In this document: positions 2,690-63,212 of the stretch, in pieces | Position numbering within the stretch: the first letter of the stretch is position 1 | How the letters are laid out: each line of letters starts with the position of its first letter | Assembly (NCBI RefSeq): GCF_963921235.1 | Contig: NC_086097.1 | Coordinates: 71,922,001 to 71,986,000, forward strand | Length of the DNA stretch: 64,000 nucleotides | Direction of reading: 5' to 3' | DNA from: Mobula hypostoma | Lineage: Eukaryota | The notes under the pieces: generated by a model | The model's database searches: none | Seen by the model: only the letters and a program-made list of their open reading frames with translations | What the model was told of the DNA's origin: nothing | Translations under genes and position numbers: made by a program

Positions 2690-3225
2690 TGCAGACCCGA
2701 AGAAGGGTCTCAGCACAAAACGTCAACTCTTTTCTCTTTTCCATAGATGCTGCCAGCCTGCTGAGTTCCTTCAGCATTTTACGTGTGTTGCTTTGGATTT
2801 CCAGTGTCTGCAGTCTTTTTGAGGGATGCCTACCCTGAAGAAGTTTAAGTCTTCCCTTCGATGGGAGTTCACTGATACTCTCTCTCACTGTTCCCCCTCT
2901 GTGATCTCTCGGCCCTCTGACTCTTCGACTCTGTGCTCACCCAGACCCGCTACTATCTCTTTCACCAATCAACCTCCTGGATCTATACTTCACTGCCTCC
3001 CACTCTCCTAGTTTCACCTATCACCTACCACTTTGTACTTCTTTCTCCCCTCCCCCCCAATTTCTTACACTGACTTCTCCCCTTCCTTTCCAGTACTGAA
3101 GAAGGGTCTTGGCCTGATTTGTCGACTGTTTACTCTTTTCCATTGATGTTGCCTGGCCTGCTGAGTTCCTCTAGCATTTTGTGTGTGTTGCTCTGAATTT
3201 CCAGCATGTTCAGGTTTTGTCATGT
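2690..3225 (+). mobile_element. Two head-to-tail 3'-end fragments of a Penelope-like element
   Basis: The block 'gaagggtct..gcc.gaaacgtcgact...gatgctgcc..gcctgctgagttcct..agcatttt.tgtgtgttgc' occurs at about 2700-2815 and 3100-3215, and matches the 3' end of the GIY-YIG element at 51913-53074. Confidence 0.8.
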
Positions 3226-3325
3226 TTGTGATTCTACTACTCAACTGGCCTGCTCTGATCCTTAAATCCACCAGATTAAAAACCACAGAGCTCATTAAGT
3301 GTGAATTTAATTCAGCTACTTTACA

Positions 3326-4566: not shown

Positions 4567-4570
4567 TAAG

Positions 4571-4596
4571 TGGGGATCTCGTCTGGGATTTTGAAC
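4571..4596 (+). promoter_or_regulatory. Primer-binding site complementary to the 3' end of tRNA-Pro
   Basis: tggggatctcgtctgggattttgaac versus the canonical tRNA-Pro PBS TGGGGGCTCGTCCGGGATTTGAAC, 4 nt downstream of the 5' LTR. Confidence 0.85.
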
Positions 4597-4667
4597 GCCA
4601 AAATTGGGACTGGGTAAATTGATTGGGTTAGAATTCCCGAAAGAAAAAAAAAGGGCAAACAGCAGAA

Positions 4668-6614: not shown

Positions 6615-7670
6615 GTGCTAGTGCCGAAAATTTATAGGGACGAGATTTTTAACCTGGCCCACAAGATACCCCTCGGTGGACATTCTGGGGTGAGGAAAAC
6701 AGTCGATAGAATTATGAAAGAGTTTTACTGGCCGAACATGAGGAAGGATATTGTTGACTATTGTAGACGATGTCATTTATGTCAGGTGGTAGGAAAGCCG
6801 AACCAAGTCCTGCCTAAAGCGCCCCTTCGACCGATACCCGCTTTCGGGGAACCTTTTTCCCGAATAATTGTGGATTTTGTCGGTTCCCTGCCCAGAACTG
6901 TGAGTGGGCGAGAGTATGTGATGACTATGATGTGCGCCACCACCAGGTTTCCGGAGGCAGTGCCCCTGGCAACCGTCAAGGCTCCCGCAGTGGTAAAGGC
7001 GCTTGTGAAATTTTTCACTACGGTGGGGCTGCCAAGGGAAATTCAGTCAGATCAGGGGAGTGTCTTCACATCTCACACATTCCGACGGATGTTGGATGAG
7101 ATGGGAGCAAAGCAGATTTTGGCCTCCGCGTACCAACTGGAGTCCCAAGGGGCGTTGGAAAGATTCCACACAACATTAAAGACCATGATTAAAACTTATT
7201 GTCAAGAGAACGCTAGAGACTGGGATGATGCCTTGCCTCTCTTGTTATTTGCCATAAAGGACACGGTTCAGGAGGCAATGGGGTTCAGCCCATTCGAGCT
7301 CGTCTTCAGCCATCGGCCCAGAGGACCTCTGACCTTACTGAAAGAGCAATGGTCCAGTCCAACAGTACAAGTCAATGTGATTGATTATGTTTTAAAATTT
7401 CGTGAGAGGCTTAGAAGGATCTGTGACCTTGCCAAAGAAAATCTACGAAACTCCCAAACAAAAATGAAACAGTGGTATGATAGACGTGCCCACGAACAAG
7501 TGTTTCAAGGGGGCGATAGGGTCTTAGTTCTGTTTCCAGTGGTAACCAACCCCCTCCAGGCGAGATTCCACGGTCCGTACAAAGTGATTAAAAGGATAGA
7601 CTCTTTGAATTATGTTATTGAAACGCCAGACAGATGTAAGCCGACCCAATTGTTGCTATTAATATGTTAA
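6615..7670 (+). pseudogene. pol: Integrase domain of pol, upstream of RT
   Basis: HHCC zinc finger (AHKIPLGGH...CRRCHLC), DDE core (IIVDFVG, IQSDQG, GALERFH) and GPY/F motif (RFHGPYKV). Confidence 0.93.
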
Positions 7671-9184
7671 AAGCTTACCACGGTAAGAAAGCAGATCTAG
7701 TCGGTGTTATCACAAAAATAAATGAGGCTGGGCTGCCAAATGATAAGGGGAAAAGCCATCTTGAAAAGGTAAATATGGTGCCGACCAGATTGGAGAACTC
7801 TATTGTTTTGGCCAACTTTGCTGGTAAGGTCTCTCACTTAACCCCTGAACAGAGCGAGCCGCTGATAAAGCTAATTAACCGGCATGCAGATGTATGTCCG
7901 GATGTCCCGAGGCGATGCAAGGGGATGGTACATGATGTTGTTGTTACATCAGATCAGCCTATTAAGAAACACCCCTATAGGATGAACTTGGAGAAGGGCA
8001 AGCTAGTGGAGAAAGAAGTTGAACACATGCTAGCCACAGGTATTATTAGGCCATCCAAATCGGAATGGGCTTCTCCCTGTGTGGTTGTCCCGAAACCCAA
8101 TGGGAGCATCCGATTCTGTACAGATTACAGAAAGGTGAACGCCATCACAAAAACTGATGCTTACCCCATCCTAAGGGTAGACGATTGCATCGATAAAGTA
8201 GAGAGAGCTAAGTACATCACAAAGATCGATTTGCTGAAAGGATACTGGTGTGTTCCTTTAATCAACCGGGCTAGAGAAATCTCAGCCTTTGTCACTCCAT
8301 CCGAGTTATATGAGTATAATGTTTTACCTTTTGTCATGAAGAACGCCCCAGGGACCTTCCAAAGGATGATCAATTCAGTGATAAAAGGGTTAAAGAACGC
8401 AGAAGTGTATATTGACAATTTAGTGGTCTGGAGTGACACATGGGAGGAGCACATTGTGGCAGTAGGGACTGTTTAAACGGCTGTCTGAAGCCAACCTGAC
8501 AGTGAACCTCGCGAAAAGTGAGTTCGGCCACGCTATGGTCACTTATCTGGGTTATGTGGTAGGACAGGGGCAGCTGGCACCGATGCAGGCTATCTCTGAA
8601 GTTCCCATCCCAACGGACAAGACAGCCCTGAGAAGGTTCTTGGGGATGGTAGGGTACTATCGGAAGTTTTGCAAAAACCTTGCGGATATTACCCTCCCTC
8701 TTACTAAGCTCTTGCTGAAGAATGAGAAGTTTGTGTAGAATGACCTTTGTCAACAAGCCTTCGAGAGTCTGAAGGCGATTCTGTGTCACCACCCTGTATG
8801 GAATGCGCCTGACTTTTCAAAACCCTTCTCCCTAGCAACAGATTCTAGCGATGAAGTGGCAGGGGCGGTGCTGTTGCAGACAGACAAAGAGGAAATTGAA
8901 CACCCAGTGGCTTATTTTTCTAAGAAGTTTAATGTCCATCAGAGAAATTATTCCACTGTGGAGAAGGAATTATTGGCAATCATTCTGGCATTACAACATT
9001 TTGAGGTTTATATTTGTCCAGCACGGAAATCACTGATCACAATCCATTAGTGTTTTTGACCACAATGAAGGATAAAGACAAATGCTTGTTAAGTTAGAGC
9101 CTGGTATTACAGGAATTTGATATTAAGATAAAACATATAAAAGGAACTGACAATGTGATTGCTGATTGTCTGTCCAGGTGTTAA
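7664..9184 (+). pseudogene. pol: Reverse transcriptase and RNase H domains of pol; disrupted
   Basis: WASPCVVVPK, RFCTDYRKVN, KIDLLKGYW, MKNAPGTFQR, YIDN (YxDD mutated), FLGMVGYYRKF, NYSTVEKELLA and a terminal NVIADCLSR; several frameshifts and stops. Confidence 0.93.
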
Positions 9185-9289
9185 AACTTAAAGTTCTCTG
9201 TATTAGCTGAATAGCTGATGGCTACCTGTATATTAGTGTGTATCTTATAATGTGCATTCATGCCCATAATTTTTACCCTGGTAAAAATC

Positions 9290-9305
9290 CTTTTAAGGGT
9301 GGGAG
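9290..9305 (+). promoter_or_regulatory. Polypurine tract
   Basis: ttttAAGGGTGGGAG immediately before the 3' LTR. Confidence 0.75.
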
Positions 9306-10120
9306 TGTCATGTGTGGCGCCAAGCAGAGCTGCAGGACGGATGATGCTAATGAGAGAGATAACGGAACACAATGGAGAAACATTCAAAATGCTAATAAGA
9401 GAGAAGAGAGAGATTAACGAGAAAGAAACACAATTCCAATGTTGGCATCTGCACCAGACCATTTGCTTTGAACCTGAACTGTTTGAAGTTTGATGGACAG
9501 GTGATACCCCAGCAGGAGGATAAAAATAGTAGGTTTGCAAAGGCACAGGACACACGCCTCGAGACCCTGGAAAGAGCAGTGTGCCCCACAAGGTGGTGGG
9601 AGTTTGGAGGACCGGGTCACAGGAATCGGTCAGAGGCTCACAGGGTGTAAAGGTACGATCGGTGGGAACCTGGTGTGTGTCCGCCCTTGCCTGGGTGTTG
9701 GATTCACCGTGGAAGAACGATCACATCCAGAATGGAGGGGTCACAGTCAGTGACCACAGCTGGATCAGAAGGCATCGAAAAGGTTTGCCTGAAACCAACA
9801 GCATCTCTCACTCTCTCTCTCTCTCCAACAGTACAACAACAGCGATTACTTCGAACTGCACTAGACTGAATTGAACTCTGCTTCACTTAAGACTGATCAT
9901 TTTACCCCTAGATTGCAACAGAGCTTGGTTGATTCCTATTACCCTATTTCTGTGTGTATGTGTGTACTATCATTGCTAACCTGTTACATCTATATTCTTG
10001 TGATTAGTGTACTGTATTACTTATTTCTTTAATAAAACTTTATTAATTCCTAGTAATCACAGACTCCAACACGTGTTCCATTTCTGCTGGTTTGGCAACC
10101 CAGTTACGGGGTACGTAACA
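9306..10120 (+). repeat. 3' LTR
   Basis: TGTCAT...GTAACA followed by the TSD CAGT; roughly 92-93% identical to the 5' LTR by manual count over the first ~360 bp. Confidence 0.97.
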
Positions 10121-16391: not shown

Positions 16392-17015
16392 GAGCAACAC
16401 ACACAAAATGCTGGAGGAATGCAGCAGGTCAAGTAGCATCTATGGAAGTGAATAAACAGTCAACGTTTCAGGCTGAGACCTTTTTTCTGGACTGGAAAGG
16501 AAGGAAGAAAATGCCAGAATAGGGGGTGTGGGGGGTTGGAAGAAGGATAGTTAGAAGGTGCTAAGTTAACCCAGGTGGTGGGAAAAGTAAAGGGCTGGAG
16601 AAGACAGAATCTGGTAGGAGAGAAGAGTAGACTATGAGAGAAAGGGAAAAAGGAGGGACACCAGGAGGAGGTGATAGGCTGATGAGGAGAAGAGGTAAGA
16701 GGCCAGAATGGGGAATAGAAGAAGAGGAAAGCAGGCGGGAAAATATTACCAGAAGGAGAAATCTATGTATATGCCATCAGGTTGGAGACAACCGAGATGG
16801 CATTGGAGGTATTGCTCTTCCACCCTGAGTATACTCTCATCATGGCACAAGAGGAGACCATGGACTGACATACTGGAACAGGAATGGGGAGAGGAATTAA
16901 AATGGCTGGCCACTGGAAAACTCTGCTTTTGATGGATGGAGCGGCAGAGCTCGACAAAGCAGTCCCCCAATTTATATTGGGTCTCATCAGTGTAGATGAG
17001 GCCACACCGGGTTTG
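16392..17015 (-). mobile_element. Penelope-like element fragment (GIY-YIG endonuclease plus 3' repeat)
   Basis: RCGLIYTDET..LGDCFVE...VASHFNSSPHS...EEQYL...LQPDG in ORF 16746-17207, followed by the PLE 3' block. Confidence 0.88.
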
Positions 17016-21157: not shown

Positions 21158-24100
21158 AACCATAGAAACCATAGAAACTACAGCACAAAAACAGGCCCTT
21201 TGGCTCTTCTTGGCTGTGCCGAACCATTCTCTGCCTAGTCCCACTGACCTGCACACAGACCATATCCCTCCATACACCTCCCATCCATGTATCTGTCCAA
21301 TTTATTCTTAAATGTTAAAAAAGAACCCGCATTTACCACCTCATCTGGCAGCTCATTCCATACTCCCACCACTCTCTGTGTGAAGAAGCCCCCCACAATG
21401 TTCCCTTTAAACTTTTCCCCCCTCACCCTTAACCCATGTCCTCTGGTTTTTTTCTCCCCTTGCCTCAGTGGAAAAAGCCTGCTTGCATTCACTCTATCTA
21501 TACCCATCATAATTTTATATACCTCGATCAAATCTCCCCTCATTCTTCTACGCTCCAGGGAATAAAGTCCTAATCTATTTAACCTTTCTCTGTAACTGAG
21601 TTTCTCAAGTCCCGGCAGCATCCTTGTAAACCTTCTCTGCACTCTTTCAACCTTATTTATATCCTTCCTGTAATTTGGTGACCAAAACTGAACACAATAC
21701 TCCAGATTCGGCCTCACCAATGCCTTATACAACCTCATCATAACTTTCCAGCTCTTATACTCAATACTTCGATTAATAAAGGCCAATGTACCAAAAGCTC
21801 TCTTTACGACCCTATCTAACTGTGACGACACTTTTAGGGAATTTTGTATCTGTATTCCCAGATCCCTCTGTTCCACTGCACTCCTCAGTGCCTTACCATT
21901 AACCCTGTATGTTCTACGTTGGTTTGTCCTTCCAACGTGCAATACCTCACACTTGTCGGTATTAAATTCCATCTGCCATTTTTCGGCCCATTTTTCCAGC
22001 TGGTCCAAGTCCCTCTGTAGGCTCTGAAAACCTTCCTCACTGTCTACTACACCTCCAATCTTTGTATCATCAGCAAACTTGCTGATCCAATTTACCACAT
22101 TATCATCCAGATCATTGGTATAGATGACAAATAACAATGGACCCAGCACTGATCCCTGTGACACATCACTAGTCACAGGCCGACACTCAGAGAAGCAATT
22201 CTCTACCACCACTCTCTGGCTTCTTCCATCGAGCCAATGTCTAATCCAATTTACTACCTCTCCATGTATACCTAGCGACTGAATTTTCCTAACTAACCTC
22301 CCATGCGGGACCCCGTCAAAGGCCTTACTGAAGTCCATGTAGACAACATCCACTGCCTTCCCTTCATCCACTTTCCTGGTAACCTCCTCGAAAAACTCCA
22401 ATAGATTGGTCAAACATGACCTACCACGCACAAAGCCATGTTGACTCTCCCTAATAAGCCCCTGTCTATCCAAATGCTTGTAGATTCTGTCTCTTAGTAC
22501 TCCCTCCAATAACTTACCTACTACTGACGTTAAACTCACTGGCCTATAATTTCCCGGATTACTTTTCAATCCTTTTTTAAACAACGGAACAACATGAGCC
22601 AGTCTCCAATCCTCCGGCACTTCACCCGTAGACAGCAACATTTTAAATATTTCTGCCAGGGCCCCCGCAATTTCAACACTAGTCTCCTTCAAGGTCCGAG
22701 GGAACACTCTGTCAGGTCCCAGGGATTTATCCACTTTAATTTTCCTCAAGACAGCAAGCACCTCCTTCTTTTCAATCTGTACAGTTTCCATGGTCTCACT
22801 ACTTGATTCCCTCAATTCCATAGATTTCATGCCAGCTTCCTTAGTAAATACAGACGCAAAAAACCTATTTAAGATCTCCCCCATTTCCTTTGGTTCCGCA
22901 CAAAGTCAACCACTCTGATCTTCAAGAGGACCAATTTTATCCCTTACAATCCTTTGGCTCTTAATATACTTGTAAAAGCTCTTTGGATTATCCTTCACTT
23001 TGACTGCCAAGGCAACCTCATGTCTTCTTTTAGCCCTCCTGATTTCTTTCTTAAGTATTTTCTTGCACTTCTTATACTCCTCAAGCACCTGATTTACCCC
23101 CTGTTTCCTATACATTTCATACAACTCCCTCTTCTTCTTTATCAGAGTTGCAATATCCCTTGAGAACCAAGATTCCTTATTCCTATTCAATTTGCCTTTA
23201 ATCCTGACAGGAACATACAAACTGCACTCTCAAAATTTCCCCTTTGAAGGCTTCCCACCTACCAATCACATCTTTGCCAGAGAACAACCTGTCCCAATCC
23301 ACGCTTTTTAGATCCTTTCTCATTTCTTCAAATTTGGCCTTCTTCCAGTTGAGAACCTCAACCCTAGGACCAGATCTATCCTTGTCCATGATCAAATTGA
23401 AACTAATGGTGTTATGATCACTGGAACCAAAGTGCTCCCCTACACAGACTTCTGTCACTTGCCCTAATTCGTTTCCTAACAGGAGATCCAATATTGCATC
23501 CCCTCTAGTTGGTCCCTCTATATATTGATTTAGAAAACTTTCCTGAACACATTTTACAAACTCTAAACCATCTAGACCCCTAACAGTATGGGAGTCCCAA
23601 TCAATGTATGGAAAATTAAAATCCCCTACCACCACAACTTTATGTTTCCTGCAGTTGCCTGCTATCTCTCTGCAGATTTGCTCTTCCAAGTCTCGTTGAC
23701 TATTGGGTGGTCTGTAATACAATCCCACTAATGTGGCCATACCTTTCCTGTTTCTCAGCTCCACCCATAAGGACTCAGTAGACAAGCCCTCTAATCTGTC
23801 CTGCCTGAGCACTGCTGTAATATTTTCCCTAACAAGCAATGCTACTCCCCCACCTTTCATTCCTCTGCCCCGATCACATCTGAAACATCGGAACCCTGGA
23901 ATATTAAGCTGCCAGTCCTGCCCCTCCTGTAGCCAAGTTTCACTAATTGCTACAACATCATAATTCCACGTGTCAATCCACGCCCTCAACTCATCCGCCT
24001 TCCTCGCAATACTCCTAGCATTGAAATATATACACCTCAGAACCTTTCTATCAGCGGATTTGCTTAAACTTTCAACATCATTTATTTTCACCCCAGCCAC

Positions 24101-24215
24101 ACTGTCAGCTCTGGCACTCTGGTTCCCATCCCCCTGCAAATCTAGTTTAAAGCTTCCCCAATAGCACTAACAAACCTCCCTGAAAGGATATTGGTCCCCC
24201 TGTGGTTCAAGTGTA
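21158..24215 (-). mobile_element. Young 5'-truncated CR1 LINE with a near-complete ORF2
   Basis: (TTTCTATGG)n tail; ORFs 23198-24139 (APE), 22906-23220 (linker) and 21235-22884 (RT). Confidence 0.95.
21235..24139 (-). pseudogene. CR1 ORF2 (apurinic-like endonuclease and reverse transcriptase) with one frameshift and one nonsense codon
   Basis: YFNARSI, ISETWL, GDFN, LDL and SSDH (APE); YRPVSLTS, QHGF, DFSKAFD, QGSVLGP and FADDTK (RT); frameshift near 23220 and in-frame TGA at 22906-22908. Confidence 0.93.
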
Positions 24216-26436
24216 ACCCACTTCTACCACCATCGCTCCCACCACTCTCTGTGCGAAAAACTTACCCCTGACATCACCTCTGTACCTGCTTCCAAGCACC
24301 TTAAAACTATGTCCCCTTGTGTTAGCCATTTCAGCCCTGGGAAAAAGACTCTGGCAATGCCCCTCATCATCTTATACGTTTCTATCAGGTCACATCTCAT
24401 CCTTCGTCACTTTAACGAGAAAAGGCCAAGTTCATTCAACCAATTTTCATAAGGCACGCTCTCCAATTCAGGCAAAATCCTTGTCAGTCTCCTTCGCACT
24501 CTTTCTATAGTATCCACATCCTTCCTGTGGTGAGGTAACCAGAACTGAACACACAGATTGCAGAAGAGTCATTTGAGAACTGCTTCTTCTGTGGAAAATA
24601 TCTATCCTGTACCTTGTGAATTATTCCCAGAAACTTCAGCCATTTCTGTTCTGCCGTCATCTCCACCAGTATCCCCCTCCAGTCCACCTGGGCAAGCTCC
24701 TCTCTCATGCATCTGTAATTCCTTTTATTCAATTGTGATACTGATACATGTGACTTATGCTTCTCCCTCTCAAATTGCAGTATGAATTCATATGATGGTT
24801 ACTGTCTCCTAAGGGTTCCTTGACGTTAAACTCATTAATACAAACTGGGTTATTACACAACACCCAATCTAAGATAACCTTTCCCCTGGTAAGCTCAAGC
24901 ACAAGCTGCTCTAAAAAAACCACCTTGTAGGCATTCAACAAATTCCCTCTTTGCGATTCAAAACCAACCTGATTCTTCCAATCCCCTTGCATATTGAAGT
25001 CCCCCATTACAACTGTGGCATTACCCTTATTACATGCCTATTCCAGCTCCCTTTCCAATCTCAACCCACATCTTGGCTACTATTTGGATGCCTATATATG
25101 ATTCCCATAATGGTTCTTTTACCCTTAAAGTTTCTTCACTCCACCCACAAAGATTCAACATTCTCTGCCCCTAAGTCACCTCTTTCTAAAGATGTAATTC
25201 CATCTCTTACCAACAGAGCCACACCACCACCTATGCTTTCCTGCCTGTCCTTTCGATATGAAATATATATCCTTTGATGTTAAGCTTCTTTCAGCCACAA
25301 CTCAGTGATACCCACAGCGTCACACCGACCAATCTCTAATTGCGCCACGAGTTTGTCCCCCTTATTCTGAATGCTATACGCATTTCAATACAGCACCTTC
25401 AGTCTTGCATTCTTTGCCCTTTTGAATCTTGCCTCTGTGGTACAATTTAACTCTGCTCGGTCTGTATTTGTAGCCAATCATTGGCTTGTCCTTCCTTACA
25501 TTCACGTTACACCCATCATCTACTTGTAAACCTGCTGGTTCATCCTCAGCTCCATCATTCTGGTTCCCACCCACCTTCCATATTATTCTAAACCACTGTC
25601 TATTGTCACAGGTTATTCTTTTTCTTTTACAGAGATGATCAAATTCAAATTCTGAATGCCTGGCTGAAGTACCAAAGAGCAAGAAAATCTCCAGTAGTCT
25701 CCAATTCCAACAAAAATACAGTTTACCCCAATTACTTACACCTCAGTTGCTGCTTTCAAAGACTAATATTATCACATATGCTGGTTCTCTAGGTGGAATT
25801 AGTTTAGGGAGAACAGGTTAACCATTTTAATTTGATATTACCCTACTTTTTAAAGGTAAACCAACTGATAGGCAGGGAAATTATTTTGTTACAATGTTGT
25901 TGACAGCTTGGAGAAGTTGTTTTTATATCTACCACCCTCAAAAAATGCAGTGAATTACCTGGAAAAACAATCTGTTGCTTCATTATATTGCCTTCTTCTA
26001 AGTTGAACAGCAGTTATTGAATGTTGTGGGATAATAATGTTAAAAATCAGATGAAAAGATGACGAGGATATATATTATCTGTAGTGTTGACCTTGAGTTC
26101 ACAGAATGGTATCTGATCAGTAAAGAAGTTGTTCAACCTGTACCACAAAGAGCAATCAACTTGACTGACTACCCAGCACGATTCACATCATCTTTTATTT
26201 GTTGCTTCCCCTCAAATACTTATTCCATTCCCTTTGGAGTGTTCCTGTTGGATTAGTGCCTATCTTCCTCATGCAGCACATTCCAGATTCTAGGTTCTTT
26301 TAGCATAAAATTTTACTTACATCACTCGTAGCTATTTTGCCAATTCCAGAATCTAATACCATCTTGTTATCAATGTTATGATGTTGAAAACTGCTTATCT
26401 TTATTTACTCTATCCAAATCCGGTGCAATTTTTAAA

Positions 26437-27510
26437 CAACGCACACGAAATGCTGGAGAAACTCAGAAGGCCAGGCAGCATCTCTGGAAAAGAGTACAGT
26501 CAATGATTCAGGTCAAGACCCTTCAGCAGGACCAGAGAAAAAAAAGCTGAGGAGTAGGTTTAAAAGGGAGGGGGGGAGGGGAGGAAGAATCAAAAGGTGA
26601 GGTGATAGGTGAAACTGGGGTGTGGTGGGGGGGGTAAGGTGAGGTAATGAGCTGAAAAGTTGATTGCTGAAAGAGCTACAGGGCTGGAGAAGGGGAATCT
26701 GATAGGAGAGAACAGAAGGCCATGGAAGAAGGAAAAGGGGGAGGTGATAGGCAAGTTAGGAGATAAGGTGAGAGAGGGAAAGGGAAATGAAAATGGAGAA
26801 TGGTGAAGGTGAGCGTGGGCATTACCAGAAGTTTGAGAAATCTATGTTCATGCCATCAGGTCGGAGGCTACCCAGATGGAATATAAGGTGTTGCTCCTCC
26901 AACCTGAGTGTGGCCTGATTGCGACAGTAGAGGAGGTCATCGATGGACATGCCGGAATGGGAATGAGAAGAGGAATTAAAATAGGTGGCCACTGGGAAAT
27001 CTCACTTTTTCTAGTGGATGGAGCGAAGCTTTCTCCCAATCTGCATCGAGTCTCACTGATATACAGGAGGTTACACCGGGAGCACCAAGCACAGTAGATG
27101 ACTCCAACAGACTCACAGGCAAAGTATCACCTCAACTGGAAGGACTGTTTGGGGCCCTGAATGGTAGTGAGGGAGAAGGTGTTGGGGAAAATGTAGCATT
27201 TTGCTCCGCTTGCAAGGATGTGCCAGGAGGGAGGTCAGTGGGAAGGGACAGGTGAATAAGGGAATTGCATAGGGAGCGATTCCTGTGGAAAGCAGAAAAT
27301 GAGGGGGAGAGAAAGGTGTGCTTGGTGGTAGGATCCTGCTGGAGATGGCAAAAGTTAAGAAGAATTATGTGCTGGATGCGAAGGCCGGTGGGGTAGTAGG
27401 TGAGGACAAGAGGAACCCTATCCCTGGTGGGGTGTCAGGAGGATGGGGTGAGGGCAGACATGCGTGAAATGGAAAAGATGCAGTTGAGGGCAGCACTGAT
27501 GGTGGAGAAA
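26437..27510 (-). mobile_element. Degraded Penelope-like element (RT C-terminus, GIY-YIG and 3' repeat)
   Basis: Co-linear with 51913-53074 along its length. Confidence 0.9.
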
Positions 27511-27894
27511 GGGTTTTTAAACATCTCTGTTAAATCTCCTCTAAGCATTAGAGCTTCTTCAGACCATCCATGTAATTCTAATGGCTTATCTCCTGAACAA
27601 TTCAAACAACTTTATTCTGTCCTCGCTTTCCTGTTCACCCTATGTTGATGTGCCCAGAATTACATACATTGAGACTGAAGTGTTACTTCTTGCAAGAACC
27701 TAGATTTTAGACTTTGCCTCTGCTTTGAAAGCCCAAGATCCAAAATGCTTTATTGACCATCTTGTTGTCTTCAAAGGTGATAAGAAATAAATGCAAGAGT
27801 AGTCTCAAGGATCTTAAGTTTAGTCCAGGATTCAATAAAATTCTGGCTGATTCTTAACCTCAAGGCCATGTTCCTGTCTAATCTCTTGAAATAA

Positions 27895-28840
27895 AAACAA
27901 ACAATATTGGAAATACTCATCAGATTAGACAACAGCTGTGGAGTAACAGAGTTAACATTTCAGTCAATGGCCTTTCATCTGGACTTGGAAAAGTTAGAAA
28001 TCAATTATATTTTGAAGTGCAGAGAAGTGGAAGGGTTGTAGCGAATATCCAGAGGGAGGTTATGAGAATATGTTTGAAAACTGGATCTCATCACACTGAG
28101 GCAGAGATGTGTTTGCCCAACAAAAATTGCACTGCATTTATCACCACATTTTATGACTCTGTCAGTTTTGGGCTTTCATGCTGAAAGTCCAGTTTAGTGA
28201 AAGTTTGAATTGGTCTCAATAACCTCTCTGTGACTGGTCTCTTACCCTGCTTCAATGAAGTCCAGCCTTAGCTCAAGGAACAGCACCTTATGTACACTAC
28301 AGCCCTCAGGACTCAATATTAAATGCAACAATTTCAGTGAAACAGCCTTTCTAATTCATGCTAGAAATGCCCAGTTCCAAGAAAGGTCACCAGCTTGTCA
28401 CATTAACTGTTCCCTGTCTTCACAAATGATGTCACAGAATATTTTCAGCATTATCAAATATATTTCAGCTCTCCAGCAAGTGCAGAATTTATAGCTCACA
28501 CTTTGTCGCATTCTTCTGTCGTTATTCACTTCCTTCCTTTTAATTCTCTCCCAGAGGGATCAACTGCAGTTAACTAACATTTACCACCCTCTCAGCTGGC
28601 ACTACCACTGTTATGTCATTCAGTTTCTCTTTATCTCCACCCTATCCCTGACATTTCTTTGGTTCTTTCCACCACTCCTCTTTATCTCTTTTAAAAAGCA
28701 TGTTTAATTTAGTTACTGACTAATGTTTAATTTCTAACTCTTCATTGTTCTGATGAAAAGTCATGGACTATTTCTGTTTCATTACACACAGATGCTGCCT
28801 CACCTGCTGAGTATTTCCAACATTCTCCGCTTTTATTTTT
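27895..28840. mobile_element. Cluster of old Penelope-like 3' fragments in both orientations
   Basis: 'cagagttaacatttcagtc...ctttcatc' (minus, about 27950), 'acactacagccctcaggactcaatat' (about 28295) and 'ctgatgaaaagtca...agatgctgcct.acctgctgagtatttcca' (about 28750-28830). Confidence 0.55.
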
Positions 28841-49039: not shown

Positions 49040-50940
49040 AAGGGACCCCAAAAGCAACAGAACTTAACTAAAAAGGCAATACGGGGAGAAAATATGAGGT
49101 ATGTACGCAACCTAGCTAGGAATATAAAGGAGGATAGCAAAAGTTTTTTTAGGTATGTGAAGAGAAGGAAGATAGTTAAGAACAATGTTGGGCCCTTGAA
49201 GAATGAATTGGGAGAAATTGTTATGAGAAACAGAGAAATGGCAGACGAATTTAGTAAGTACTTTGAATCAGTCTTCGCTAGGGAAGACACAAGCAGTCTC
49301 CCAGTTGTATGGATGGGCCGAGGACATAGGGTAACAGAGGAACTGAAACAGATTGACATTAGGAAGGAAACGGTGATGAGTAGACTGATGGGACTGAAGG
49401 CTAACAAATCCCAGGTCCAGATGGTCTGCATCCTAGGGTACTAAAGGAGGAGGCTCTGGAAATTGCGGATGCATTGGTGACCATTTTCCAATGATCATTA
49501 GATTCAGGATCAGTTCCTGAGGATTGGCGAATGGCTAACGTTACCCCACTTTTTAAGAAAGGAGGGAGGGAGAAAACAGAGAACTATCACCCTATTAGCC
49601 TAACATCAGTAGTGGGGAAAATGCTAGAGTCCATTAATAAAGATGAAATAGTGGCATATCTTGATAGCAGTGATAAGATTGGGCCGAGCCAGCATGGATT
49701 TACCAAGGGCAAATCATGCTTGACTAACGTGTTGGAGTTTTTCGAGGATGTAACCAGGAAGATAGACGCGGGAGATCCAGTGGATGTGGTGTACCTTGAC
49801 TTTCAGAAGGCATTTGATAAGGTACCACATAGGAGATTGGTGGGTAAAATCAGAGCTCATGGCATTGCGGGGAGGATATTGACATGGATAGAAAACTGGT
49901 TGGCAGATAGAAAGCAAACGGTTGCAGTGAATGGGTGTTTCTCGGAATGGCAGGTGGTGACTAGTGGGATGCCACAGGGCTCGGTATTGGGACCACAGCT
50001 GTTTACGATTTATGTCAATGATTTAGAGGAAGGCATTGTGAATAACATCAGCAAGTTAGCTGATGATACTAAGCTGGGTGGCAGTGTGACATGTGATGAG
50101 GATGTTAGGAGAATTCAAGGTGACTTGGATAGGCTGGGTGAGTGGGCAGAAACTTGGCAGATGGCGTTTAATGTGAATAAGTGTGAGGTTATTCACTTTG
50201 GGAGCAAGAACAGGAAGGCAGATTATTATCTGAACGGTGTGGAGTTAGGTAAGGGTGAAATACAAAGAGATCTAGGAGTATTTGTTCATCAGTCTCTGAA
50301 GGTGAATGAGCAAGTGCAGCAGGCAATGAAGAAGGCTAATGGGATGTTGGCCTTTATTACAAAGGGAATTGAGTACAAGAGCAAGGAAATCCTTTTGCAT
50401 TTGTACAGGGCCCTGGTGAGACCACACCTGGAGTATTGTGTGCAGTTTTGGTCTCCAGGGTTAAGGAAGGACATCCTGGCTGTGGAGGAGGTGCAGCGTA
50501 GGTTCACTAGGTTAATTCCTGGGATGTCCGGACTGTCTTACGCAGAGAGGTTAGAGAGACTGGGCTTGTACACACTGGAATTAAGGAGATTGAGGGGCGA
50601 TCTGATTGAGACATATAAGATTATTAAGGGATTGGACAAGATAGAGGCAGGAAATATGTTCCAGATGCTGGAAGAGTCCGGTACCATAGGGCATGGTTTA
50701 AGAATAAGGGGTAGGTCATTTAGGACAGAGTTGAGGAGGAACTTCTTCTCCCAGAGAGTTGTGGAGGTGTGGAACGCGCTGCCTCAGAAGGCAGTGGAGG
50801 CCAATTCTCTGGATGCTTTCAAGAAGGAGCTAGATAGGTATCTTATGGACAGGGGAATCAAGGGTTATGGGGACAAGGCAGGAACCGGGTATTGATAGTA
50901 GATGATCAGCCATGATCTCAGAATGGCGCTGCAGGCTCAA
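49040..50940 (+). mobile_element. 5'-truncated CR1 with an open 454-aa RT frame (49531-50895)
   Basis: QHGF, DFQKAFD, PQGSVLGP, LADDTK and HLEYCVQFWSP; upstream frameshift and stop. Confidence 0.93.
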
Positions 50941-51973
50941 AGGGCTCTTTGTAGCAGAAAAATATGGGCAGTGATGATCGTCTGTTATAAGTATATTGGA
51001 AAGCCTTGTATTTTGAAAGGGATAGATAAGATAGAAGTAGGAAAGTTGTTTTCATTGGCAAGTGAGACTAGAACTAGGGGACATTGCCTCAAGATTCAGG
51101 GGAGAAGATTTAGGGTGGAGATGAGGAGAAACTGTTTTTCCCAGAGTGGTGAATCTGTGGAATTTTCTGCCCAGGGAAGCAGTTGAGGCTTCTTCACTAA
51201 ATATACTTAAGATACAGTTAGATAGATTTTTACATAGTACCTGAATTAAGGGTTATGGGGAAAATGCAGGTGGATGGAGCTGAGTTTACGGACAGATTAG
51301 CCATGATCTTATTAAATGGCGGGGCAGGTTCGATGGGCCGGATGGCCTACTTCTGCTCCTAATCTTGTGCTTCTTATGTATTTGTCAACTGGGTAGTACA
51401 AGCAGCATAAGTTGCTTATGTGGCTTATTGACTCTGTGGTTAGGAAGCCATATGGTGCATTGGCCATCATTAACCGTGGGATTGAGTTTAGGAGCCGAGA
51501 GGTAATGTTGCAGCTATATTAGACCCTGGTCAGACCCCACTTGGAGTACTGTGCTCAGTTCTGGTCACCTCACTACTGGAAGGATGTGGAAACCATAGAA
51601 AGGGTACAGAGGAGATTTACAAGGATGTTGCCTTGATTGGGGAGCATGCCTTGTGAGAATAGGTTAAGTGACCTTGGCCCCTTCTCCTTGGAGCGACGGA
51701 GGATGAGAGGTGACCTGATAGAGGTGTATAAGATGATGAGAGGCTTTGATCATGTGGATAGTCAGAGGCTGAAATGGCTAACATGAGAGGGCACAGTTTT
51801 AAGGTGCTCGGAATTAGTTACAGAGGAGATGTTAGGGATAAGTTTTTTATGCAGAGAGTGGTGAGTGCATGGAATGGATTGCCGGCGACGGTGGTGGAGG
51901 AAGATACAATAGCAACACACATCAAAGTTGCTGGTGAACGCAGCAGGCCAGGCAGCATCTGTAGGAAGAGGTG

Positions 51974-52010
51974 CAGTCGATGTTTCAGGCCGAGACGCTT
52001 CGTCAGGACT
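51974..52010 (-). ncRNA. Minimal type-I hammerhead ribozyme motif (best copy in the window, partly decayed)
   Basis: The minus strand reads AGUC-CUGACGA-A-GCGU CUCG GCCU-GAAAC-AUC-GACU(G): core boxes CUGANGA and GAAA, stem I AGUC/GACU and a weakened stem II. Confidence 0.7.
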
Positions 52011-52312
52011 AACTGAAGGAAGAGTGAGTAAGGGATTTGAAAGTTGGAGGGGGAGGGGGAGATCCAAAATGATAGGAGAAGACAGGAGGGGGAGGGATAG
52101 AACCAAGAGCTGGACAGGTGACAGGCAAAAGGGGATACGAGAGGATCATGGGACAGGAGGTCCGGGAAGAAAGACAAGGAGTGGGGGTGGGGGGGACCCA
52201 GAGGATGGGCAAGAGGTATATTCAGAGGGACAGATGGAGAAAAAGGAGAGTGAGAGAAAGAATGTGTGCATAAAAATAAGTAACAGATGGGGTACGAGGG
52301 GGAGGTGGGGCC

Positions 52313-53056
52313 TTAGCAGAAGTTAGAGAAGTCGATGTTCATACCATCAGGTTGGAGGCTACCCAGACGGAATATAAGGTGTTGTTCCTCCAACCTGAGT
52401 GTGGCTTCATCTTTACAGTAGAGGAGGCCGTGGATAGACATGTCAGAATGGGAATGGGATGTGGAATTAAAATGTGTGGCCACTGGGAGATCCTGCTTTC
52501 TCTGGTGGACAGAGCGTAGATGTTCAGCAAAGCAGTCTCCCAGTCTGCGTCGGGTCTCGCCAATATATAAAAGGCCACATCGGGAGCACCGGACGCAGTA
52601 TATCACCCCAGTCGACTCACAGGTGAAGTGTTGCCTCACCTGGAAGGACTGTTTGGGGCCCTGAATGGTGGTAAGGGAGGAAGTGTAAGGGCATGTGTAG
52701 CACTTGTTCCGCTTACACGGATAAGTGCCAGGAGGGAGATCAGTGGGGAGGGATGGGGGGGACGTATGGACAAGGGAGTTGCGTAGGGAGCGATCCCTGC
52801 GGAATGCAGAGAGAGGGAGGGAGGGAAAGATGTGCTCAGTGGTGGGATCCCGTTGGAGGTGGCGGAAGTTACGGAGAATAATATGTTGGACCTGGAGGCT
52901 GGTGGGGTGGTAGGTGAGGACCAGGGGAACCCTATTCCTAGTGGGGTGGCAGGAGGATGGAGTGAGAGCAGATGTACGTGAAATGGGGAAGATGCGTTTA
53001 AGAGCAGAGTTGATAGTGGAGGAAGGGAAGCCCCTTTCTTTAAAAAAGGAAGACAT
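52313..53056 (-). CDS. Penelope-like ORF C-terminus: end of RT, Cys-rich linker and GIY-YIG endonuclease (open but 5'-truncated)
   Basis: FKERGFP, PLVLTYHP, CKRNKCYTC, GVIYCVRCSRCGLLYIGETRRRL, VATHFN and RLEEQHLIFRLGSLQPDGMN. Confidence 0.85.
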   Translation of the reverse strand: MSSFFKERGFPSSTINSALKRIFPISRTSALTPSSCHPTRNRVPLVLTYHPTSLQVQHIILRNFRHLQRDPTTEHIFPSLPLSAFRRDRSLRNSLVHTSPPSLPTDLPPGTYPCKRNKCYTCPYTSSLTTIQGPKQSFQVRQHFTCESTGVIYCVRCSRCGLLYIGETRRRLGDCFAEHLRSVHQRKQDLPVATHFNSTSHSHSDMSIHGLLYCKDEATLRLEEQHLIFRLGSLQPDGMNIDFSNFC

Positions 53057-53530
53057 CTTCCTCGTCCTGTTTGCGAAGATACAATAGGGTCTTTTAAGAG
53101 ACCTCTGGATAGGCTCATGGAGCTCAGAAAAATAGAGGGCTATGGGTAACCCAAGGTAACTTCTAAAGTAAGTACATGTTCCTGCACAGCATCGTGGGCC
53201 AAAGGGCCTGTATTCTGCCCTAGGTTTTCTATGTTTCTATATTTCTATGTATTCTTGGATATGAGGTGCTTTAAGTACTGTAGCATGTGGCTAACTGCTT
53301 TCTCTATGATGTTACAAATGTTCAGTGCAGAATTAGGAGAACTGATCTTCCTGTGTCATAGAAGGCACACTGTGGAACTTTATTTTCCAGAAAAGCTCAT
53401 TTCTCTGTAAGATATTTTGTTTTAAACAATACTTAGATAGTTTATATCACCAACTATCATTCAATGTCTAAGCACTACAGCGTAACTTCTTTAGTGAGCA
53501 TTATGGAGCACATCCCCGGGCATGAAAGAC

Positions 53531-53909: not shown

Positions 53910-55250
53910 GTCATAGTCATAGTCATACTTTATTGATCCCGAGGGAAATTGGTTTTCGTTACAGTTGCACCATAAATAATTGAATACTAATAAAACCATA
54001 AATAATTAAATAGTAATATGTAAATTATGCCAGGAAATTATGAAATAAGTCCAGGACCAGCCTATTGGCTCAGGGTGTCTGACCTTCCAAGGGAGGAGTT
54101 GTAAAGTTTGATGGCCACAGGCAGGAATGACTTCCTGTGACGCTCTGTGTTGCATCTCGGTGGAATAAGTCTCTGGCTGAATGTACTCCTGTGCCCAACC
54201 AGTCCATTATGTAGTGGATGGGAGACATTGTCCAAGATGGAATGCAACTTAGACAGCATCCTCTTTTCAGACACCACCATCAGAGAGTCCAGTTCCATCC
54301 CCACAACATCACTGGCCTTACGAGTGAGTTTGTTGATTCTGTTGGTATCTGCTACCCTCAGCCTGCTGTCCCAGCACACAACAGCAAACATGATAGCACT
54401 GGCGACCACAGACTCGTAGAACATCCTCAGCAATGTCCAACAGATGTTAAAGGACCTCAGTCTCCTCAGGAAATAGAGACGGCTCTGTCCCTTCTAGTAG
54501 ACAGCCTCAATGTTCTTTGACCAGTCCAGTTTATTGTCAATTCGTATCCCCAGGTATTTGTAATCCTCCACCATATCCACACTGACCCCCTGGATGGAAA
54601 CAGGGGTCACTGGTGCCTTAGCCCTCCTCAGGTCCACCACCAGCTCCTTAGTCTTTTTCACATTAAGCTGCAGATAATTCTGCTCACACCATGTTACAAA
54701 GTTTCCTACCGTAGCCCTGTACTCAGCATCATCTCCCTTGCTGATGCATCCAACTATGTCAGAGTCATCAGAAAACTTCTGAAGATGACAAGGCTCTGTG
54801 CAGTAGTTGAAGTACGAGGTGTAAATAGTGAAGAGAAAGGGAGACAAGACAGTCCCCTGTGGAGCCCCAGTGCTGCTGATCACTCTGTCGGACACACAGT
54901 GTTGCAAGCACACGTACTGTGGTCTGCCAGTCAGGTAATCTAGAATCCATGACACCTGGAAAGCATCCACCTGCATCACTGTCAGCTGGCATCCTCAACT
55001 CCTAGTCGGGGCCGGTCAGCGAACTGGAGGGGTTCTAAGTGTGGCCTGACCATAGACTGGAGCAGCTCCAGAACACGTCTCTCCAGGGTCTTCATGATGT
55101 GGGAGGTCAATGCCACCGGTCTGTAGTCATTGAGGCCACTGGGGCGCGGCATCTTTGGCACAGGGAGGAGGCAGGACATCTTCCACAGCACAGGAACCCT
55201 CTGGAGACTCAGGCTCAGGTTGAAGACAGGTTGTACTCCAGCATGTTGAC
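53910..55250 (-). mobile_element. 5'-truncated Rex1/Babar LINE with an internal deletion
   Basis: NDYRPVALTSHIMK, GAPQGTVLSP, FSDD and YKYLG; (ACTATG)n tail; near-copy of 55363-56800. Confidence 0.92.
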
Positions 55251-55362
55251 TTGAGACAGAATTCTGCATTACTTCATCATTAATAAACTTGAATAAGGTT
55301 TTAAGAGGAAGTGAGGAAGCTGTTCAGGATGCAGAATACCCACTGTCTCCACTGCCATCCTT

Positions 55363-58300
55363 ATAGTCATAGTGATAGTCGTACTTTATTGATCCCGGGG
55401 GAAATTGGTTTTCGTTACAGTTGCACCATAAATAATAAATAGTAATAGAACCATAAATAGTTAAATAGTAAGATGTAAATTATGCCAGTAAATTATGAAA
55501 TAAGTCCAGGACCAGCCTATTGGCTCAGGGTGTCTGACCCTCCAAGGGAGGAGTTATAAAGTTTGATGGCCACAGGCAGGAATGACTTCCTATGACGCTC
55601 TGTGTTGCATCTCGGTGGAATGAGTCTCTGGCTGAATGTACTCCTGTGCCCAACCAATACATTATGTAGTGGATGGGAAACATAAACCAAGATGGCATGC
55701 AACTTAGACAGCATCCTCTTTTCAGACACCACCGTCAGAGAGTCCAGTTCCATCCCCACAACATCACCGGCCTTACGAATGAGTTTGTTGGTTCTGTTAG
55801 TGTCTGCTACCCTCAGCCTGCTGCCCCAGCACACAACAGCAAACATGATAGCACTGGCGACCACAGACTCGTAGAACATCCTCAGCATCGTCCGTCAGAT
55901 GTTAAAGGACCTCAGTCTCCTCAGGAAGTAGAGACGGCTCTGACCCTTCTTGTAGACAGCCTCAGTGTTCTTTGACCAGTCCAGTTTATTGTCGATTCGT
56001 ATCCCTAGATATTTGTAATCCTTCACCATGTCCACACTGACCCACCGGATGGAAACAGGGGTCACCAGTACCTTAGCTCTCCTCAGGTCTACCACCAGCT
56101 CCTTAGTCTTTTTCACATTAAGCTGCAAATAATTCTGCTCACACCATGTGACAAAGTTTCCTACCATAGCCCTGTACTCAGCCTCATCTCCCTTGCTGAT
56201 GCATCCAACTATGGCAGAGTCATCAGAAAACTTCTGAAGATGACAAGACTCTGTGCAGTAGTTGAAGTCCGAGGTGTAAATGGTGAAGAGAAAGGGAGAC
56301 AAGACAGTCCCCTGTGGAGCCCCAGTGCTGCTGATCGCTCCGTTGGACACACAGAGTTGCAAGCACACGTACTGTGGTCTGCCAGTCAGATAATCAAGGA
56401 TCTATGATACCAGGGAAACATCTTCCTGCATTGCTGTCAGCTTCTCCCCCAGCAGAGCAGGGCGGATGGTGTTGAACGCACTGGAGAAGTCAAAAAACAT
56501 GACCCTCACAGTGCTCGCTGGCTTGTCCAGGTGGGCGTAGACACGGTTCAACAGGTAGACGATGGCATCCTCAACTCCTAGTCGGGGCTGGTAGGCAAAC
56601 TGAAGGGGATCTAAGTGTGGCCTAACCATAGGCCGGAGCAGCTTCAGAACACATCTCTCCAGAGTCTTCATGATGTGGGAGGTCAATGCCACTGGTCTGT
56701 AGTCATTGAGGCCGCTGGGGCGTGGCGTTTTCGGCACAGGGACAAGGCAGGACATCTTTCACAGTACAGGAACCCTCCGGAGTATCAGGCTCAGGTTGAA
56801 TACATGGCGAAGTACTCCACATAGCTGAGGGGCACAGGCTTTGAGCACCCTGGTACTGACACCATCTGGTCCTGCAGCCTTGCTTGGGTTGAGACGTTTC
56901 AGCTGTCTTCTCACCTGTTCAGCTGTGAAGCCCACCGTGGTGGTTTCGTGTGGGGAAGGGGTATAGTCATGAGAGCAGGGTGGGGGACTGTGAGGAGGGG
57001 TAGGAGGGGAGAATGGAATATGTGTTTGTTGGGGGCCGACAACAGATAGCTCATGTGTGGGATAGGCAGGGGCCACAATGTCAAATCTGTTAAAGAACAA
57101 GTAAAGTTCCCTGGCCCTGTCCACATTGCCTTCCGCTCCTCTGTTGCTAGTTTGCCGGAACCCAGTGATGGTCCTCATCCCCCTCCATACCTCTCTCATG
57201 TTGTTCTGCAAGAGTTTCCACTCAAGCTTCCTCCTGTACTTGTCTTTAGCCTCCCTGATCCTGGCTTTCAGGTCCCTCTGCATTGCCCTCAGCTCCTCCC
57301 TATTTCCATCTCTAAGCACCCTCTTTTTAGCTTTCAGGATGTCCTCAATGTCCTTTGTCACCCATGGCTTGTTATTCGAATAACAAAGGACAGTTCTTGT
57401 CGGAACATTGCAGTCCACACAGAAGTTGATGTAATCAGTGATGCGCTCTGTGAGCCCATCAATATCCTCTCCATGTGGTTCACAGAGTGCCTGCCAGTCT
57501 GTCACCTCAAAACAACCCTGGAGCGCCTCATAAGCCTCCTCCGACCGTTTTCTCACTGTCCTCGAGGTTGCATGTTTTCTCTTCACCAGAGGCACGTAGC
57601 AGGGTTTTAGATGCACCAGGTTGTGATCTGACCTTCCCAGTGGGGAGAGGGGAGAGGAGCTGTATGCTTCCTTAACGTTAGTGTACATCAAATCCAGAGT
57701 CCTCTCCCCTCTGGTTGTACAGCTCACATACTGCGTGAAGTTGGGCAGTGTTCTAGCCATGGTAACCTGGTTGAAGTCACCCGAGATGGTAATGAGGGCA
57801 CTCGGGTGCTGCGTTTGTAATCTGGCTATGACGGTGTAAATGATGTTACACGTCAACGTCGGGTTGGCAGAGATGTAAACAAAAACCACAATTGCATGCG
57901 AGATTTCACTTGGCAAATAATATGGCTAGAGTCCAACAGCAAAAAGTTCCATATCTGGGCTACAGACACGTTGCTTGATCATAATGGATGAATTGAAGGA
58001 AATTTATATTAGGCAGGAATTGGTGTTGGATAGGCTGTTGGGTCTGAAGGCTGATAAGTCCCCGGGACCTGATGGTCTGCATCCCAGGGTACTTAAGGAG
58101 GTGGCTTTAGAAATCATGGACGCATTGCTAATCATTTTCCAATATTCTATAGACTCGGTATCAGTTCCTGTAGATTGGAGGGTGGCTACTGTTGTCCCTT
58201 TCTTCAAGAAGGGAGGAAGAGAGAAAACAGGGAATTATAGACCGGTTAGCCAGACGTCGGTGGTGGGAAAGATGCTGGACTCAATTATAAAAGATGAAAT

Positions 58301-62220: not shown

Positions 62221-62509
62221 AGCCGCCTAATTTATTGTGGTTCTCACTACAGCCAGGTGCTTCATGGAGAAGTACGTTGTATTGATGAGAACTGAGATCA
62301 GAATATTAGAAGAAAGCTGCAATTTGTCTAGTTACTTTTTTTAATTTATAGAAATGGTAAATGTAGCTTTGTCAGATTTGACAATTGACTGAGAAAATTT
62401 AAAAATCACAGTTATGATCTACAGCATCACATCCCATCCCCAATTTCTCTTCCATTAACACAAATTATTCTTCCCTAAAGAAAGGAATTTTTAAACTTGG
62501 ATGATTAAC

Positions 62510-63212
62510 TCCCAGTGTGGCCTTCTATATATTGGCGAGACCCGACGCAGACAGGGAGATCGTTTTGCTGAACTTCTATGCTCTGTCCACCAGAGAAAGC
62601 AGGATCTCACAGTGGCCACACATTTTCATTCCACGTCCCATTCCCATTCTGATATGTCCATCCATGGCCTCCTCTACTGTCAAGATGAAGCAAACTCAGG
62701 TTGGAGGAACAACACCTTATATTCCGCTTGGGTAGCCTCCAACCTGATGGCATGAACATTAGCTTCTGTAATTTCTACTGCCCCTCCTCCCCTTCTTACC
62801 CCATCATTTATTTATTTACTTATTTATTTCCCTTTCTTTCTCTTTCTTTTTTCTCCCTCTGTCCCTCTCATTAAATCTTCCTCTGATGCTCCCTCCCCCT
62901 TTCTTTCTTCCCAGGCCTCCCATCCTATGATCCTCTCCCTTCTCCAGCCTCATATCCCTTTTGCCAATCAGCTTTCCAGCTCTTAGCACCATCCCTCCCC
63001 CTCCTGTCTTCTCCTATCATTTCAGATCTCCCCCTCCCCCTCTTACTTTCAAATCTCTTACTATCTCTTTTTTCAGTAGGTCCTATCGAAGGGTCTCGGC
63101 CCAAAATGTCGACTGTACTGCTTCCTATAGATGCTGCCTGGCCTGCTGCGTTCCACCAGCATTTTGTGTGTGTTGCTTGAATTTCCAGCATCTGCAGATT
63201 TCCTCGTGTTTG
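62510..63212 (+). mobile_element. Penelope-like element fragment (GIY-YIG plus 3' repeat)
   Basis: CGLLYIGETRRR...VATHFHS; same family as 51913-53074. Confidence 0.92.

Follow-up and report, generated by a model that had tools for sequence, protein, structure and literature searches.

The window, i.e., the whole 64,000-nt stretch of DNA that was analysed, contains a young, 5'-truncated copy of a Penelope-like element (PLE) on the minus strand at 51913..53074. The copy is composed of the end of the open reading frame (ORF), the 3' pLTR, a hammerhead motif, and a short 3' end without the 35-nt tail. It is bordered by a 13-bp target-site duplication, of which the right-hand copy on the element strand lies at 51900..51912 and the left-hand copy at 53075..53087. 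The C-terminal piece of the ORF is open at 52313..53074 (minus strand, 253 codons and a stop). It covers the RT thumb region, a C-x4-C-x2-C linker, and a GIY-YIG endonuclease with CxxC and two histidines, and the GIY-YIG match (E 0.052) was below the curated cut-off. The ORF is followed by a pyrimidine-rich part of the pLTR (approximately 300 nt), then by the motif and a further 65 nt. The insertion was approximately 97% identical to its best genomic relatives; among the best 40 genomic matches to it, the 39 others were at 97% identity. It is embedded in a LINE-like repeat fragment (family D13); copies of such repeats resemble AP endonuclease or RT in their open frames. The DNA around the focal copy, itself a dead fragment, consists of older repeats.

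The focal minimal hammerhead is located at 51974..52010 on the minus strand (numbering read from the sequence). Stem I is formed by 52010-52007 with 51978-51975. The core lies at 52006-52000, the extra A at 51999, stem II at 51998-51987, and GAAA at 51986-51983, and the predicted cut falls between 51979 and 51978. The core boxes are present. Two lesions are private to this copy, i.e., G10.2>C at 51997, which breaks stem II, and G16.2>A at 51981, by which the 15.2-16.2 pair and the palindrome are lost, and the copy is predicted to be inactive. The sequence-only reading had regarded the deviations of each copy as its own lesions. This holds for 51997 and 51981, whereas U11.1 at 51987 proved to be inherited when genomic relatives were compared, and the C6 of the copy at 26497 matches an inherited subfamily state. 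An upstream pyrimidine tract at 52015..52021 (minus strand) is predicted by folding to pair with the core GAAGG in intact U11.1 copies.

Six blocks of this kind had been claimed in the window, and all of them were recovered at their positions and strands. The claimed architecture was also present, i.e., CUGANGA, an extra A, a 4-bp stem II with a tetraloop, GAAAC-GUC, the AGUC/GACU stem I, and the palindromic ACGU. Two decayed hammerheads on the plus strand, 2693..2728 and 3091..3128, belong to one old, internally deleted element with both pLTRs (2693-3236). The former lies in the 5' pLTR; stem I marks the beginning of the element, and the ORF starts downstream at 2826 (match 2825-2929). The latter is likely in the 3' pLTR (about 3047-3236). 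The decayed motif at 16457..16494 (minus strand) is located downstream of an endonuclease remnant (about 16745-17011). The one at 26497..26533 (minus strand, copy about 26431-27513) has C at core position 6, and in the one at 63079..63115 (plus strand, copy about 62509-63209) A6 and G12 are changed. By class assignment, the focal copy belongs to young class A, the copies at 63079, 26497, and 3091 to class B, and that at 16457 to the oldest class C, and that at 2693 was left unassigned. Only the focal block among the six was within 3 mismatches of the family 31-mer, for which the chance expectation is none. A seventh, much older downstream-pLTR remnant was observed at 28787-28823 (plus strand), with a CUGAUGA box upstream and the second box absent.

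The remark that no copy is fully intact was borne out, as the generic minimal-hammerhead descriptor detected no intact motif in the window. The placement in the 3' repeat fails for 2693, which lies in a 5' pLTR, and the pLTR location itself stands. The blocks belong to several subfamilies, and therefore the single consensus drawn from the six copies mixes different parents. Rfam search of the window gave no hammerhead match (seven weak, unrelated matches), which we infer to be a limit of its models for loop-less forms.

The motif does not need to be reconstructed from decayed copies, because the exact canonical 34-mer was found 6,605 times genome-wide, and the reversed pattern was not found. 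In an unbiased sample of 1.064 Mb, the generic descriptor recognized 19 intact motifs, against none in the reversed sample. The CUGANGA and GAAA boxes with the UH triplet are exact in these 6,605 copies and in 38,871 exact copies of the U11.1 form, and the A6C subfamily departs at one position. The ACGU palindrome, i.e., the loop-less stem III, was found in all five subfamily consensuses and is lost in the focal copy. The extra base between 9 and 10.1 is A in all subfamilies. Across the five consensuses, the 37-nt block differs only at N7, 6, 11.1, and CpG-decayed sites, whereas the flanks differ widely. The subfamilies span 4-14% divergence, and the greater conservation of the block argues that it matters to the element.

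Distant relatives, i.e., 80 loci from metagenome contigs with 30-56% protein identity, were also searched. Sixteen sense-strand minimal hammerheads were found in 15 of the 80 loci, against two antisense and none reversed. The stem sequences of the sense matches were quite different and still paired in the same fold, and an extra base was kept in 15/16. With the core boxes alone as the query, all three helices were paired in 12/21 sense and 2/8 antisense matches, and in none of 20 local shuffles. The U3-A8 core variant, reported for Schistosoma elements (PMC4209133), was observed in four distant relatives (L360, L379, L389, and L410). Stem I/II covariation, proposed earlier as a check, was present between the distant families and absent between the five subfamily consensuses of this genome, where no two-sided change was found and the changes were one-sided only.

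A chance hammerhead-like pattern in a repeat would agree with the missing Rfam match and with the missing two-sided covariation among the subfamilies of this genome. It is extremely improbable, and it is refuted by 15/80 distant relatives, in which the motif lies on the sense strand at a consistent position and its stems vary while still paired, and by the shuffled and reversed controls, which gave none. The six blocks are confirmed as decayed minimal (loop-less stem III) type-I hammerheads of PLE pLTRs. The dimer-type assignment of the sequence-only reading is likewise supported by the pLTR position, the RT/GIY-YIG ORF, and the stems that vary yet pair in distant families.

By its coding features, the element is assigned as an EN+ PLE of Neptune/Nematis type (RT and GIY-YIG). 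Its single ORF has the order RT, then C-terminal GIY-YIG endonuclease. A 787-codon frame was found in one of the 20 fetched relatives, with weak RVT_1 and GIY-YIG matches below the curated cut-offs. The longest frame, in L328, has 1,016 codons, and its RVT_1 and GIY-YIG matches were also below the curated cut-offs. The register of this frame is lost across the RT catalytic motif; thus no fully intact copy was seen among the fetched elements. The L328 protein has C-x4-C-x2-C at 883, CxxC at 926, and two later histidines. It fits the definition of the CX2-5CxxC linker and CCHH motif, which is that of Neptune and Nematis elements (PMC8557442). In the 5' pLTR of L328, a short frame (about 16 codons) opens with an AUG at +21 after the cut and precedes the main start codon. 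The element has 1,085 protein homologues, and the closest named proteins are those of devil ray (85-93% identity), stingray (77-84%), and sharks (62-71%), which points to a cartilaginous host, most likely a ray. The viral_contigs search gave no relative. No shark or ray account of this PLE family was found in searches of the freely accessible literature.

When the 5' part of the ORF was used as a query, nine of the 30 loci had a sense-strand motif about 650 nt upstream. The motif was found in both pLTRs of 9/10 fetched long elements, with a spacing of 3,489-3,724 nt. The start codon lies 138 nt downstream of the predicted cut and the stop codon about 324-325 nt upstream of the next predicted cut, and the 5' pLTR ranges from 88 to 1,486 nt. 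The PLE hallmarks were present, i.e., partial-tandem pLTRs, inverted 5' copies (frequent among the 20 fetched relatives of the focal copy), 5' truncation, and an optional 30-40 nt tail. An unusual ribozyme change was common to both pLTRs in L322 (stem I) and in L329 (stem II), as if from one template copy. With an HMM built from the stretch that follows the motif, 170 copies were recognized in the unbiased 1.064-Mb sample, whereas its reversed control gave none. By extrapolation from this sample, the genome total would be roughly half a million element ends.

The parent of the focal copy was not the consensus proposed earlier but the G10.1-U11.1 form. U11.1 was found in 20/20 fetched relatives, which had been chosen by likeness to the focal copy, and in 8/9 two-pLTR elements, found with a query from the U11.1 subfamily. 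In the unbiased sample, 31/44 class-A copies covering the block carried it. The dominant young subfamily carries the G10.1-U11.1 wobble, whereas older subfamilies keep G10.1-C11.1. The U form as CpG decay was ruled out, because the mirror change at the same CpG, at G12, is 25 times rarer (1,561 copies), and also because U11.1 is linked to flank variants, e.g., TG-C at +4 to +6 in 21/30 U11.1 loci versus 1/30 C11.1 loci. In contig-only runs of related organisms, C11.1 was absent at 10% among the rows listed for X1, X2, and X19, and it accounted for 32-69% of the depth in X10, X13, X14, and X17; therefore the U form looks recent. The 10.1-11.1 pair is the second most conserved pair of the hammerhead (PMC3088659), and folding predicts a loss of 1.6 kcal/mol in stem II of the U11.1 form. 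On account of this conservation and predicted loss, U11.1 is considered weakened. A shifted register of stem II that takes in the extra A was predicted to be less stable than the wobble register. Literature search for a measurement of a G10.1-U11.1 hammerhead found none.

The second inherited state is A6C. At position 6, class B has C in 15/41 copies and A in 18/41. The classes are ordered by flank divergence at about 14%, 8%, and 4%. The exact A6C form was found in 154 copies genome-wide. Of 30 such loci inspected by eye, 25 had class-B flanks and five class-A flanks, and for most of them a scattered mutation is ruled out by the class-B flanks. In a phage hammerhead, A6C gives a kobs below 0.1 per min (PMC3088659) and favours Mn2+ (PMC7151607).

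The folding values are equilibrium predictions for RNA alone, i.e., without protein, dimer, or co-transcriptional folding. In the isolated young forms (C11.1 and U11.1, 30 loci each), stems I and II are predicted to fold. In the same forms, G5-A6-C7-G8 is predicted to pair with C15.2-G16.2-U16.1-C17 and to close the core (median P 0.98), and A6C removes this predicted pairing. When 50 nt upstream and 75 nt downstream were included, the median P of stem I was 0-0.015. Pairing of the core with the upstream pyrimidine tract had a median P of 0.97 in U11.1, 0.36 in C11.1, and 0.10 in A6C. Across the cut, trans pairing of the GUCGAC palindrome is predicted to be stronger than that of the ACGU needed for the active dimer. 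In the pLTR context, these models predict a ribozyme in the off state.

Such a prediction raises the idea that catalysis has been lost and that the motif is retained beside the RT start hairpin for a structural, protein-binding, or promoter role. The changes at conserved positions in two amplified lineages would suit this idea, as would Naiad PLEs, which proliferate without hammerheads (PMC8557442). However, G8, G12, A13, A14, A15.1, U16.1, C17, and all stem pairings are unchanged in the subfamily consensuses bar CpG decay. The whole fold with different stem letters in distant families also fits catalysis better than sequence-specific binding. A vestigial motif is considered rather unlikely, though it deserves some weight.

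The insertions themselves record which RNA was copied. The 3' ends of young copies form two clusters after the cut, at +59 to +69 (23/49) and +91 to +105 (19/49), a pattern similar to the pair of RT start sites in the anole element (PMC11167929). As these ends lie downstream of the cut, the cDNA must cross the cut site. The 5' starts were read from 50 alignments, the other 106 of 156 (older or non-terminal) being set aside. In this set, the start lay upstream of the cut in 41/50 young copies and at -31/-30, i.e., at the start of stem I, in six; no copy began at +1. These six, together with the old copy at 2693, begin as might follow from an RNA start at stem I, which would suit a promoter-like role of the motif, but such starts also fit microhomology at GTC-CT-GAC. 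Young copies were likely made from RNA uncut at the hammerhead site. The sequence-only reading had the active parent cleave its RNA after GUC, but by far the most genomic copies run across this site.

Junctions near the cut were counted genome-wide with probes at -3, -1, +1 (the cut), +2, and +4, which gave 188, 84, 502, 183, and 144. The 502 cut-site junctions compare with 90,865 intact downstream 31-mers. The peak at the cut is real, but with probe acceptance roughly corrected for, it corresponds to approximately 1% of copies. By script, the first 40 cut-site junctions comprised 28 inverted-copy joins, six flank joins, and six direct or deletion joins; by eye, four were true flank joins, and GAC microhomology was seen in 16 of the 28 inverted joins. 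In the same three classes, the control junctions were 7/6/7 of 20 at +2 and 13/4/3 of 20 at +4. Classes are given for +1, +2, and +4, and counts only for -3 and -1. Scaled from these small samples, true flank joins are about 50, 37, and 14 at +1, +2, and +4. As a clear cleavage footprint the excess was rejected, because the mix of junction classes and the GAC microhomology at +1, compared with the controls, make it inseparable from microhomology. Cutting may have left its mark in the peak at this very position.

Uncut and religated RNA should leave similar copies, and the circle-template model of Cervera and de la Pena (PMC4209133) has to be weighed here. It supposes efficient cutting at both pLTRs, ligation of the 3.5-kb unit, and copying more than once round, by which the site is regenerated. 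If both motifs were cut, precisely one unit carrying the complete ORF would be set free, and the model would account for the varied lengths of the 5' pLTR and the junction peak at the cut position. It would also suit the one element whose pLTRs are 99.6% identical over 1,486 nt and the stem-I change common to both pLTRs in another. However, in 3/9 two-pLTR elements the pLTRs differ, as judged by eye, at subfamily-variable sites, which is unexpected from one monomer circle. A6C or U11.1 in amplified lineages also argues against efficient cutting. Moreover, uncut RNA is the main substrate of the anole element, and no reads end at its site (PMC11167929). The circle is regarded as unlikely.

The explanation that we favour, as probable by a small measure, is that the intact motif performs a slow, dimer- and probably protein-dependent cleavage, which most insertions do not use. 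Stem III would arise by ACGU pairing between two motifs, from both pLTRs of one tandem transcript or from two RNAs. In a monomer, the core would be closed by the predicted pairing of G5-A6-N7-G8 with C15.2-G16.2-U16.1-C17, and in context it is predicted to be bound by the upstream pyrimidine tract. Cutting after GUC would then occur only in the dimer, probably with the help of the element's protein. Synthesis of the cDNA would be initiated downstream of the cut, at a distance of 60-70 or 95-105 nt, and would have to cross the site to reach the ORF, so that an unrepaired cut would destroy the template. Reverse transcription likely copies RNA uncut at the site, and occasional cutting may trim tandem or read-through transcripts to the 3.5-kb unit with the whole ORF. 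The weakening changes, U11.1 and A6C, were tolerated in amplified lineages, which counts for a slow ribozyme. Against it, a circle that was cut and religated would give read-through copies just as well. The junction peak at the cut and the stronger conservation of the block than of its flanks likewise weigh against it.

The motif and its link to PLEs are already published, and the family is a new, very high-copy member of the published class. The min-HHRs of metazoan PLE pLTRs, including those of fish Xena, Poseidon, and Neptune (PMC4209133), share with it the type-I topology without loop 3, the palindromic 15.2-16.2, an extra nucleotide between 9 and 10.1, a helix I of 4-5 bp, the location in both pLTRs, and mostly single truncated genomic copies. 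They differ in that G10.1-C11.1 is highly conserved there, whereas G10.1-U11.1 (dominant young) and A6C (older) were found here; in our distant relatives, G10.1-C11.1 was kept in 15/16 sense matches and G-U was in 0/16. The copy number here is also far above the 4,000-9,000 of coelacanth and Xenopus (PMC4209133). The main text of that study contains no cartilaginous fish, and shark and skate are absent from the searched text of its supplement. Cleavage by metazoan min-HHRs is weak and requires a dimer (PMC4209133). The dimer-cleaving PLE hammerheads of Lunse, Weinberg and Breaker (PMC5785218, via PMC6765202) likewise share the short palindromic stem III, the dimer requirement, and the PLE association.

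Another close system is the anole Poseidon element PAc (PMC11167929), in which a pLTR hammerhead lies upstream of two RT start sites, as here. Its two start sites give the 30-40 nt tail, and its copies come from uncut RNA, as is likely in the present family. The anole ribozyme cuts only with protein and is dispensable for insertion in vitro (PMC11167929). The ORF of PAc starts inside stem II, whereas the start codon here comes after the cut, and unlike PAc the element here has the Neptune/Nematis-type cysteine linker (PMC11167929). A natural hammerhead with C at core position 6, as in A6C, is known from phage Bcep176 (PMC3088659, PMC7151607). That one is a single phage motif, whereas A6C here marks an amplified retrotransposon subfamily of the loop-less dimer type (PMC3088659). 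Non-LTR retrozymes also have type-I hammerheads related to those of PLE pLTRs, but they are non-coding tandem arrays, and the copies here are dispersed ends of a coding element (bioRxiv 10.64898/2026.07.22.740005). The retrozyme survey took in one chondrichthyan genome (bioRxiv 10.64898/2026.07.22.740005). No tandem array was found at the hammerhead sites of the window. Retrozyme identity was ruled out, as there is no tandem array and the copies end a coding element.

The motif is mostly ordinary, and what distinguishes the family is an inherited change at a base pair that is normally conserved, carried by its most abundant young form. What hammerheads do in PLEs is described as an open question (PMC8557442). 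The family offers three natural ribozyme states (C11.1, U11.1, and A6C) with very large copy numbers and rough ages, and through these states a beneficial, harmful, or neutral effect of self-cleavage on the element could be told apart. It is conceivable, but improbable in our judgement, that successive bursts were led by masters with a turned-down hammerhead, i.e., A6C and then G10.1-U11.1 with the capturing upstream hairpin, cutting being costly. Templates would be lost to the element when the RNA is cut between the RT start site and the ORF, and this cost would have favoured such masters. If so, the genome would hold a dated natural series of ribozyme attenuation, and a small fossil excess of insertions would start at the cut site.

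Other repeats were also found in the window. An LTR-retrotransposon-like element was located at 3747-10120, with two 94%-identical repeats about 5.56 kb apart. Its frames (5184-8476) read as gag-protease, integrase, then RT and are broken by stops, and this order we take to be that of Gmr1-type elements. LINE copies with long open frames of AP endonuclease or RT likeness were observed at 21235-24166 (minus strand), 49495-50895 (plus strand), and 56759-57925 (plus strand). Two direct-repeat pairs (D8 and D15), 89-94% identical and spaced by 1,455 and 1,576 nt, were found at 53983-56804.
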